Below, piece after piece: positions 33,427-35,543 of a stretch of 64,000 nt of DNA (position 1 is the stretch's first letter; each line of letters opens with the position of its first letter). A program made the translations under genes and the position numbers. Location: positions 37,634,001-37,698,000 of the forward strand of contig NC_091286.1 in NCBI RefSeq assembly GCF_032444005.1. The letters run 5' to 3'. The notes under the pieces were generated by a model that saw only the letters and a list, made by a program, of their open reading frames with translations, was not told the DNA's origin and did no database searches. The stretch is from Ranitomeya imitator. Its lineage: Eukaryota.

Positions 33427-35543
33427 ATGGGTGCCTACAGAAGGAGCCCAGGCCGGCCGGCCGATTACGGTAGCGGGGGGGGGTCTCCTACCTCGGCCGG
33501 TGCGGAGATCCCTGGAGACGCCACGGTGGTCCTTGCTGGATTGCACGTCGGTGGCGTTCGTAGCAGGGAGCGGAGTCAGGAGGATTTCCTGCCTCCATCA
33601 GCGTCGGCGCAGGTAAGTATTTCCCATTGGTGGTGCGGCGTGGCTGCGGGTGCCGGGCTCAGATGTGTGGGTGAGCTCCGGAGCGCTGCCGATCCATCCC
33701 CGGCGTCCTGCACCGCTCTCAGCGTGTACTGGAGCGTTTCCGGGTGCAGTGACGTAGGGGGGCGGAGCTGGTAGCCGCTTCCGGGTCGCCGGACGTCTGC
33801 ATGCGCGGTCGGTCCAAGATGGCGGCGCCCATCACATCTGGACGCCGGTTCGTCCGCTAGTCCTCCTGCCCTCCCTGCTGTGTCCGGAGCCAATAGGGAC
33901 AACGCTGGCCTATCTGCTGACCGGATCCAAGGGGGATTTAAGCGGGTTACAATGATAGAACCCTGCTTTTGGTCGCAATTCGTCATGGAGAGTGGTGGTG
34001 AGCAGCAGCAGCAGCTGTCAGACGAGGTGCGTCAGAAGCCCAAGCAGAAAGATAGAAGCGACCAGCCCAGTCGTAAAAGCTCATCCGAGCAGGGATCCAG
34101 AGCTTCGACTAGGAAAGAACCCCCTCGGATTCCGGTACTTGACTTTGGCGCACGGGTAAGTGATCTACGTGAAAGTTCACTCTGTGACGCGGGCCTCTTA
34201 TACTTTATCTTTCCAGGGGAAGAAGAGTACAGACAAGTCAAAACATAAGGAGTGTGCCCTCTGTGGAGTCCCCTTACCTGACTCTTGTTCCAAAAAGTTA
34301 TGTGCCCCCTGTATACAACAGACGGTGAGGTCTACAGGAGTGGTTGGGTGGAAGTGACTTTAGGTCAGATAGTGGTTATCACCTATATTGTCCTCCCCTA
34401 GGTAGCAGAAGAGTCCGTGAGTGCGGCAAACTTAAAGGAAATGATCCGGCTAGAAGTAAGGGAATCATTACGGTCCCTATCCCAAGCGGAAGGCTCGAAG
34501 CATAGGACACCTCTGGACTCTAATTCTTCAGAAGAGGAAAGTACCTATCTCTCTAGTCCTTTCTCCTCTTCATCGGATGAGGAGTCTGGACGATTTTGCC
34601 TACCCTTGGATAAGATTGACAAGGTGGTCAAATCAGTTAGAGGCACGATGGGTATAGAGGAACCCAAATCACAGCTCTCAAAACAGGAGTTGATGTTTAG
34701 TGGATTAGATCGTAAAAAACAGATCTTTTCCGGTAAACGAGAAGATCCAAGACTTGATCCTCCGAGAGTGGAAAAAAAAAGGGGGCCTTACCGCCAGCTT
34801 TAAAACGCAGGTATCCTTTTGATGATCCGGTGGTGGATACGTGGGATAAAGCCCCTAAGTTGGACGCGGCAGTAGCAAAAGCGTCAAAGAAAGCCTCATT
34901 ACCCTTTGAGGATATGGTGTCCCTCAAAGATCCTCTGGACAGGAAGGCAGATATCTTCCTTAAAGGTACCTGGGAGATGGCGGCAGGATCCCTCAGACCA
35001 GCCGTGGCCGCAACATGCACAGCCAGGTCATTAATGGTCTGGCTAGATCAATTAGAGTCTCAGCTTAAGGACGGTGCATCCAGAGATTCTATTCTGAAAG
35101 CTCTACCAACAATTCAGAATGCTGCGGCGTTCCTATCGGACGCATCTGTGGACTCTGTCAAAATGGCGGCTAGAGCGGCAGGACTATCTAACGCGGCTCG
35201 CAGAGCCTTATGGTTAAAGTGCTGGTCAGGTGACATTCAGTCCAGAACTAAACTCTGCACCATTCCGTGTGAAGGACAATATCTCTTTGGTCCAACGCTG
35301 GATGAGTTGTTGGAAAAGGCAGGGGATGACAAAAAGAAGTTTCCCAGTCTGTATTCAGCATCCTACCGCCGACTCTTCAATCGAAGAAGGTTTGGTCGTG
35401 GGAAGAAACGCGGGTCCTCTCCCACTAGAGAAAGTTTCAGATGGGAAGACAGACGCGGTAGAGGTACAGACTACATGTTTCGCCGTTCCTCAAAAGATCA
35501 GAAAAAAACGGAACCAATTACTAGCGATCCCTGTGGGGGGTAG
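33427..35543 (+). pseudogene. DIRS ORF1 (gag-like), apparently spliced: exon 33427-33612 or 33985-34155, then 34217-34324 (CxxC...CxxC) and 34402 onward; frameshifts at homopolymers near 34714 and 34772
   Basis: Phase-0 donors GTAAGT (33613, 34156) and GTGAGG (34325); acceptors TTTCCAG (34216) and CCCCTAG (34401); C-terminal part 34830-35543 is typical of vertebrate DIRS ORF1. Confidence 0.7.

Follow-up and report, generated by a model that had tools for sequence, protein, structure and literature searches.

Retrotransposons copy RNA, so introns within them are expected to be stripped. A retrotransposon in the 64,000-nucleotide stretch of the Ranitomeya imitator genome analyzed here (the window) raises the question of whether its gag gene is nonetheless split by spliceosomal introns and, if so, how these outlast repeated copying. 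Passages of PMC8557442 report that spliceosomal introns survive retrotransposition in Penelope-like elements, some of which have an internal promoter next to the intron, and call intron retention highly unusual among retroelements and of unknown significance. For DIRS-1, excerpts of PMC7192593 describe the copying of spliced RNA, shown with engineered introns.

A DIRS1-like element from a young family

Judging from its repeats, ORFs and Pfam matches (LAP2alpha, RVT_1, RT_RNaseH and, weakly, Phage_integrase), the locus at 33303-38804 on the forward strand is a DIRS1-like tyrosine-recombinase retrotransposon, one copy from a young family with 39 further scored places at 92-96% identity in a search of the 5.96 Gb genome. 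The left inverted terminal repeat (33304-33407) is 96% complementary to 38671-38774, within the right inverted terminal repeat and its 3' extension (38671-38804), and an internal complementary region (ICR; 38422-38504) matches both ends, being complementary to 33303-33334 and 38751-38804. Gag is followed by a reverse transcriptase (RT)/RNase H frame, open from stop to stop at 35218-37416 (+) (RVT_1, PF00078, E 1e-21; RT_RNaseH, PF17917, E 4e-6), and the recombinase frame overlaps pol, lying in three pieces at 36675-38398 (+) in the window copy. Its Phage_integrase match (PF00589, E 1e-4) falls under the cut-off because the frame is broken; the window copy carries frameshifts in both gag and the recombinase. 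The inverted repeats, an ICR matching both ends, the gag-RT-RNase H order and the overlapping recombinase are the features that define DIRS1-like elements. The element has a recombinase, inverted terminal repeats and an ICR in place of the GIY-YIG endonuclease, PLE-type RT and pseudo-LTRs of Penelope-like elements, and no GIY-YIG match was found in the scanned ORFs. After RNase H, Pfam gave no match to a methyltransferase domain; a YAFPP motif, which we take to be methyltransferase-related, is present. The nearest named proteins are from poison frogs, a metagenome scan returned no relative of the element, and an Rfam scan of the window gave no match.

The same inverted repeats, ICR, LAP2alpha gag, RT/RNase H and overlapping recombinase frame are found in the DIRS1-like elements of Xenopus and other vertebrates, as described in parts of PMC9210276 and PMC3266345. 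Those descriptions treat ORF1 as one frame, whereas gag here consists of two or three exons.

The gag frame is assembled from three exons

The gag of this element is almost certainly split by real introns. In the window family the gag exons are 33985-34134, 34217-34324 and 34402 onward, all on the forward strand. The first runs from the ATG at 33985 through 50 codons, the last of which is Pro; it is followed by an 82-nt phase-0 intron with a weak donor (34135-34216). The second, of 108 nt, encodes a zinc-finger-like C-x2-C-x12-C-x2-C motif, and a 77-nt, phase-0, clade-specific intron (34325-34401) separates it from the third (34402-35543), which carries the LAP2alpha domain (PF11560, E 3e-15) and whose frame is broken near 34720 in the window copy. 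Both introns have GT-AG ends with a pyrimidine tract. A loose YTNAY match to a branch point, scored with no control set, lies 15-45 nt before the first-intron acceptor in 11 of 14 lineages.

An initial annotation of this DNA had joined the pieces of gag through the ATG codons at 33427 and 33985, GTAAGT donors at 33613 and 34156 and one AG at 34216, and all five sites are indeed present and in phase 0 in the window copy. The 108-nt zinc-finger-like exon and the 77-nt GT-AG intron behind it, which it had also recognized, proved to be family-wide. It overlooked the weak donor at 34135, which lies 82 nt before the acceptor and is likewise in phase 0.

We aligned 30 family copies to assess conservation. 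Of the 30 copies, 29 keep the ATG at 33985 and 29 have an exon 33985-34134 whose length is divisible by three. All 30 keep the acceptor at 34216, and exon 34217-34324 measures 108 nt in 29. The second intron is present in 30/30 copies (77 nt in 29), always with in-frame stops. The third exon is open for 375-386 codons from its acceptor in 12 of the 30. The breaks in gag are thus not specific to the window copy. The zinc-finger exon taken alone has no Pfam match; its motif occurs in 62 of 135 further gag-like proteins, and gags with the zinc finger are found, at the protein level, in Xenopus, Rana, Bombina and hylids.

Genomic copies have lost single introns exactly

Intron-less copies, which the initial annotation had proposed looking for, were found for either intron. 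We collected 60 distinct window-family copies, 56 of which were found by exon-only or leader-only queries. The first intron is kept in 58 of 59 scorable copies and the second in 57 of 58. One of the 60 copies (L248, the same as L198) lacks exactly 34135-34216, and another (L131, the same as L035) lacks exactly 34325-34401; a search with the L035 junction retrieved a second exact loss of 34325-34401 (L155, the same as L141; 2 of 40 scored). L248, L131 and L155 are full-length copies that include both repeats and the ICR, and in each the other intron is still present. L131 and L155 are each nearer to intron-bearing copies than to one another.

In three other families, the homologue of the first intron is precisely missing, from the upstream donor, in all 11 fetched contiguous matches (12 were listed), in searches that used proteins carrying the weak-donor junction and hence favor that donor. 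All 14 losses examined in the four families therefore fall exactly on GT-AG boundaries, in copies that are full length or bounded by the terminal repeats. In a tree of 51 copies of the family of NCBI gag model P0004, the six copies without the intron do not group together: the nearest neighbor of five bears the intron, the sixth is tied, and no site is exclusive to them. The intron-less copies L180-182 and L186-187 are likewise scattered, with no exclusive shared site. By these comparisons the intron-less copies arose independently, and no intron-less offspring was seen; most copies of any transposon are childless, so childless intron-less copies are weak evidence by themselves. Spliced or partly spliced full-length RNA is occasionally copied, and most integrated copies derive from intron-retaining RNA. 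The loss junctions slide by 2-3 nt, and introns may also be lost through short microhomology.

Two copies are altered within the first intron: L078 has a 36-nt deletion that removes the strong donor-like site, and L047 has a 355-nt insertion.

Splice joints in RNA-type contigs

The element is contained in 13 sequencing runs, which we presume to be RNA although none of the 13 is on record as such; Logan contigs of 8 of these, from 4 studies, mostly 90-99% alike, were examined. The joint 34324^34402 (77 nt, GT..AG) occurs in four of the eight runs (X1, X2, X10 and X11) and two of the four studies, at a depth of 7-9 and with 26 nt on its shorter side. The joint 34134^34217 (82 nt, GT..AG) occurs in one of the eight (X1). 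Unspliced contigs span both introns in runs X2, X3, X4 and X11. Among the joints listed for the eight runs, none corresponds to 34155^34217 or starts from 33612. Of the three junctions that the initial annotation had predicted, 34324^34402 was thus recovered, 33612^34217 and 34155^34217 were absent among the joints listed, and 34134^34217 appeared instead. Together with the exact-loss copies, these joints bear out its proposal that gag is split by spliceosomal-type introns and spliced.

A further joint in the same runs, 33985-34510, matches a genomic copy, L223 (G000:C9), from which an internal deletion has removed gag exons one and two (window-equivalent 33985-34507). Splice joints may therefore stem from intron-less copies as well, and taken alone they are weak evidence. 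Since the L223 joint was found in four RNA-type runs of another sample set, derivatives of this type may be widespread.

The working donor of the first intron is very probably 34135. Counting only evidence unbiased by query choice, 34135 has one genomic loss and one RNA joint to its credit and 34156 has neither; the role given earlier to 34156 as the working donor was not supported.

The first intron is shared by divergent families

We fetched 40 loci among the LAP2alpha hits of the genome, with RT identities to the window element from about 41% to 95%. In 35 of the 40, a motif script recovered the zinc-finger exon together with an acceptor that is in frame and precedes the first cysteine by 11-16 codons (L107, L115, L116, L119 and L120 were left unscored). 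In 14 of 15 lineages, a phase-0 ATG exon ends at a donor 75-89 nt upstream of the acceptor, the donor of L105 being assigned from phase only. The exception, L104, is a single decayed copy in which the acceptor and, 88 nt upstream, a donor are present, but a phase-0 ATG exon is not. The first intron is thus shared by lineages that have diverged to about 45% identity in their RT proteins. Three NCBI models of frog gags (P0004, P0011 and P0013) use the weak donor for this junction; since P0004 is also a direct match to intron-less copies, it may not be a spliced model.

Most lineages also carry a strong GTRAGT 56-67 nt from the acceptor, which in the window element is the donor-like site at 34153-34163 (+; GT at 34156, 61 nt to the acceptor), a candidate decoy. 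It lies 18, 20, 21, 22, 23 or 25 nt past the used donor; because this spacing varies, its phase is free. The phase 0 shared by all five sites had been judged unlikely by chance, but the homologues of 34156 occupy all three phases, so that its match in the window family is an accident of that family. The L174 family has an altered strong site and members of the L091/L108 clade possess one donor only; both groups retain the intron.

Read-through of a retained first intron closes after 36-112 codons in 17 of 17 representatives, so unspliced RNA cannot encode Gag. The stop lies inside the strong-site motif in 10 of 15 representatives, which may account for part of the conservation of this motif.

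In a cluster of 18 Logan members (P0025), the gag N-terminus resembles an in-frame read-through of the homologous intron, with VLVS...LSLFFPQ before the zinc finger.

The introns are more conserved than fourfold sites

The initial annotation had predicted that the introns would decay faster than the exons; the reverse was observed. Relative to L110 and L118, the first-intron core differs at 6/56 and 9/56 sites (11-16%) and the second-intron core at 11/50 and 12/50 (22-24%), against 109/206 and 92/197 fourfold sites (47-53%; Fisher p 3e-9 to 4e-3). Relative to L123, the first intron differs at 3/56 sites against 50/239 fourfold sites, which is significant, whereas the second intron (7/51, p 0.33) is not. 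Inside the family, shared variants occupy 2/82 and 1/77 intron sites versus 26/145 fourfold sites.

A neutral intron lost in about 2% of copies would be gone within some tens to a hundred rounds. Since lineages keep the first intron despite losses of about 2%, these comparisons indicate that it is likely retained by selection.

The second intron is a likely gain

The second intron occurs only in the window family and L110/L118/L119; elsewhere the zinc finger continues directly into the gag body. In a midpoint-rooted gag tree of 39 rows, the five carriers form one side of a branch with 96/93 support and are nested, and their sister, the P0011 family, lacks the intron. This distribution points to one gain as the likely origin. 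Repeated loss is the less simple reading, though loss does occur.

Descent of the second intron from a duplicate of the first was rejected, as 560 of 1000 shuffles scored as high, and a search for a source gave no other match in the window.

Two probable RNA pools and a candidate decoy site

The initial annotation had suggested that spliced RNA makes Gag while unspliced RNA is copied. The splicing, the intron-keeping copies and the closed read-through agree with this, and from them we infer two RNA pools, spliced RNA for Gag and intron-retaining RNA as template, an arrangement that we consider probable. The gag frame reads through only once both short GT-AG introns have been spliced out. In the proposed scheme, transcripts from an internal TATA promoter some 50 nt ahead of the ATG would have a short, efficiently spliced first exon, while the long RNA from the terminal repeat would mostly keep the intron and serve as the template for copying. 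The strong site at 34156 is probably too close to the acceptor for splicing and could instead act as a U1-binding decoy, either reducing splicing or preventing early 3'-end formation in the way described for Arabidopsis EVD; this role, drawn by analogy, is put forward tentatively. Intron-less copies would be poor parents, and selection would thereby keep the first intron.

The candidate promoter is a TATA-like box at 33935-33942 (+), 50 nt upstream of the gag ATG and inside a CpG-rich leader. A match of at least 6/8 at -62 to -35 of the gag ATG is present in all 14 lineages, compared with 16 of 154 control windows, in a comparison where the -62 to -35 window was chosen after inspection of the data and the lineages are not independent. 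The conserved box suggests an internal promoter for gag mRNA. As for early 3'-end formation, poly(A) hexamers after gag showed no conserved position across families; a loose hexamer cluster 320-390 nt into RT is found in many lineages and absent in others, in a scan of coding DNA that leaves coding constraint uncontrolled. A hairpin hiding the strong site was also sought, with z values of -1.7 to +0.6 in 16 sequences (the L183 segment being 6 nt off register) and none conserved.

The two-pool reading competes with one in which the first intron is kept because packaging or reverse transcription depends on a cis-element inside it, or because gag mRNA must be spliced to be exported and translated; the strong site would then be a by-product of a stop codon or of the cis-element, with no U1 role. 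The strong constraint on the intron core would be expected of such an element, the in-frame stop offers another reason for the motif in 10 of 15 representatives, and the two groups without the strong site still keep the intron. An absolute packaging need is nevertheless excluded by intron-less copies that integrated with both terminal repeats, no common structure emerged, and GTRAG is kept in the window family, L123, L183, L105 and L098, where it supplies no stop. We regard this alternative as possible but rather unlikely.

Somewhat less likely still is that 34156 or 33613 serves as a donor to a far acceptor, making a message for the reverse transcriptase or the recombinase. We scored donors against a motif that we take to be complementary to U1: 33613 matches at 11, 34156 at 9 and the used donor 34135 at 6.5 of 11 positions, so that both candidate sites outscore the donor in use. 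In several families, moreover, the open recombinase frame extends no more than about 620-710 nt upstream of its domain. No such joint was found among those listed, however, including four runs across the whole element, and none of 30 recombinase-side loci or 30 leader-anchored loci was so joined. The donor phase differs by family, and the best candidate acceptors are not common to all families. One candidate acceptor, at the RNase H end, was rejected: its AG is present in some families and absent in the window family, L098 and L091.

The donor at 33613 also figured in the initial annotation, as the end of an alternative coding first exon (33427-33612) spliced, like a second one from ATG 33985 through 34156, to a single acceptor. 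All of these sites exist in phase in the window copy, and the site at 33610-33620 (+; GT at 33613) is perfectly U1-complementary (11/11) and intact in 29 of 30 copies. It is clade-restricted, being degenerate in L110 and L118. The codon at 33427 is ATG in 3 copies, ACG in 26 and AAG in 1 of 30; ACG can act as a near-cognate start. The segment 33427-33612 has a frame-shifting length in 19 of the 30 copies, some such lengths being common to several of them. No deletion starting at 33613 was found in 30 leader-anchored copies, and among the joints listed and the copies scored none uses 33613 or 34156. The 61 nt from 34156 to the acceptor are, in addition, short for a vertebrate intron. The model of two coding first exons is already largely refuted and is very improbable; the alignment instead identifies 33427-33612 (+) as a conserved, non-coding leader with shared variants at 5 of 183 sites.

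Copy-specific decay or chance GT-AG motifs, with the intron-less copies as microhomology deletions, fits the sliding of the junctions by 2-3 nt and is the least probable reading of all, given the in-phase conservation within and across families and the 14 independent losses exactly on GT-AG boundaries in four families.

Comparison with other spliced retroelements and with LAP2alpha

The preferred two-pool reading has parallels among plant Ty1/Copia elements. According to sections of PMC5580714 and PMC3735527, spliced RNA of EVD and BARE1 makes Gag while full-length RNA keeps the intron. BARE1 has separate RNA pools (excerpts of PMC3735527), and an intron-deleted EVD yields only short gag RNA because U1 binding otherwise blocks early termination (excerpts of PMC5580714). 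In the EVD and BARE1 passages, splicing at the gag end creates a stop, whereas the DIRS introns lie near the gag start and open the frame, and the element order is different. Penelope-like elements, as presented in parts of PMC8557442, have unrelated enzymes and a characterized intron in the 5' UTR, in contrast to the recurrent exact loss beside long-term retention seen here.

Our search found no description of introns in DIRS1 gag in the literature; subscription reviews, Repbase and preprint supplements may mention them. In the portions of text covered, 'splic' does not occur in PMC9210276 or PMC3266345; 'intron' does not occur in these two or in PMC3783388, PMC4157794 and PMC12822217; and PMC12006353, PMC9004415 and PMC5718144 contain nothing on DIRS1 gag introns. 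What appears to be new, from sequence comparison, is a spliced gag in a known family, copies that have lost an intron exactly, probable retention by selection and the likely gain of an intron within a retroelement lineage; the junction itself already lies inside NCBI models. The exon-level map is the first that we found for a vertebrate DIRS1 gag and adds the missing N-terminus and zinc finger to ORF1. Because the genome records the stripping itself, in 14 exact losses from four families, and the intron has nevertheless lasted, the reason for its retention becomes directly testable.

The map also bears on domestication. Abascal et al. concluded that the TMPO/LAP2alpha and ZNF451-L2a exons derive from DIRS1 ORF1 and inferred that a splice acceptor and a poly(A) signal came with the captured sequence (passages of PMC4495291). 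The gag acceptor is a concrete candidate for that acceptor, and the link to LAP2alpha domestication drawn in the initial annotation fits this published inference. The gag alignment matches mouse LAP2alpha (PDB 2v0x, E 8e-31); neither mammalian LAP2alpha nor ZNF451-L2a was recovered in the protein searches. The exons described in the excerpted text encode 506 and 497 residues, compared with about 403-425 from acceptor to gag stop in the DIRS elements here. We consider it possible, though doubtful as a whole, that frog and perhaps all vertebrate DIRS1 elements carry a built-in splicing switch: an ancient gag intron whose weak working donor and strong decoy U1 site sort Gag message from genome, lost through reverse transcription in about 2% or more of new copies yet maintained by selection, able to be joined by newly gained introns, and the source of the acceptor that was captured twice in mammals, in the LAP2alpha and ZNF451-L2a exons.

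NCBI lists many DIRS gags of frogs as lamina-associated polypeptide 2-like genes, and several of the models fuse gag to host domains. The frog models with the same weak-donor junction (P0011 and P0013; P0004) bear names of host-like or uncharacterized genes, in contrast to the transposon gags described here. By the gag map, many of the frog gene models called 'LAP2-like' are probably gags of transposons.

Downstream frames and neighboring repeats

At the end of gag (35505-35530), a TGA-CTA-G lies in frame with RT in 25 of 28 aligned copies and also in L110, L118 and L322; we presume this context to be a stop-readthrough signal. In other families, RT is in the +1 frame relative to gag, mostly without an ATG. 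The recombinase frame of L091, L094, L108, L183 and L184 is open for about 1,865 nt and overlaps nearly all of RT; that of the window family and several others opens just 620-710 nt upstream of its domain.

Directly left of the DIRS element lie two elements with inverted ends, at 29611-31270 and 31733-33265, which we take to be Tc1/mariner-like; the former has 235-nt perfect repeats and a transposase interrupted by one stop. A LINE with long ORF1 and ORF2 pieces, presumably CR1-like, occupies 48205-52131. The window also holds three tandem arrays: 120 copies of a 56-nt unit at 5588-12313, 12 copies of a 68-nt unit with 98% matches at 17215-18028, and 5.7 copies of a 391-nt unit at 41279-43497, which adjoins degenerate TTAGGG repeats at 41106-41267.
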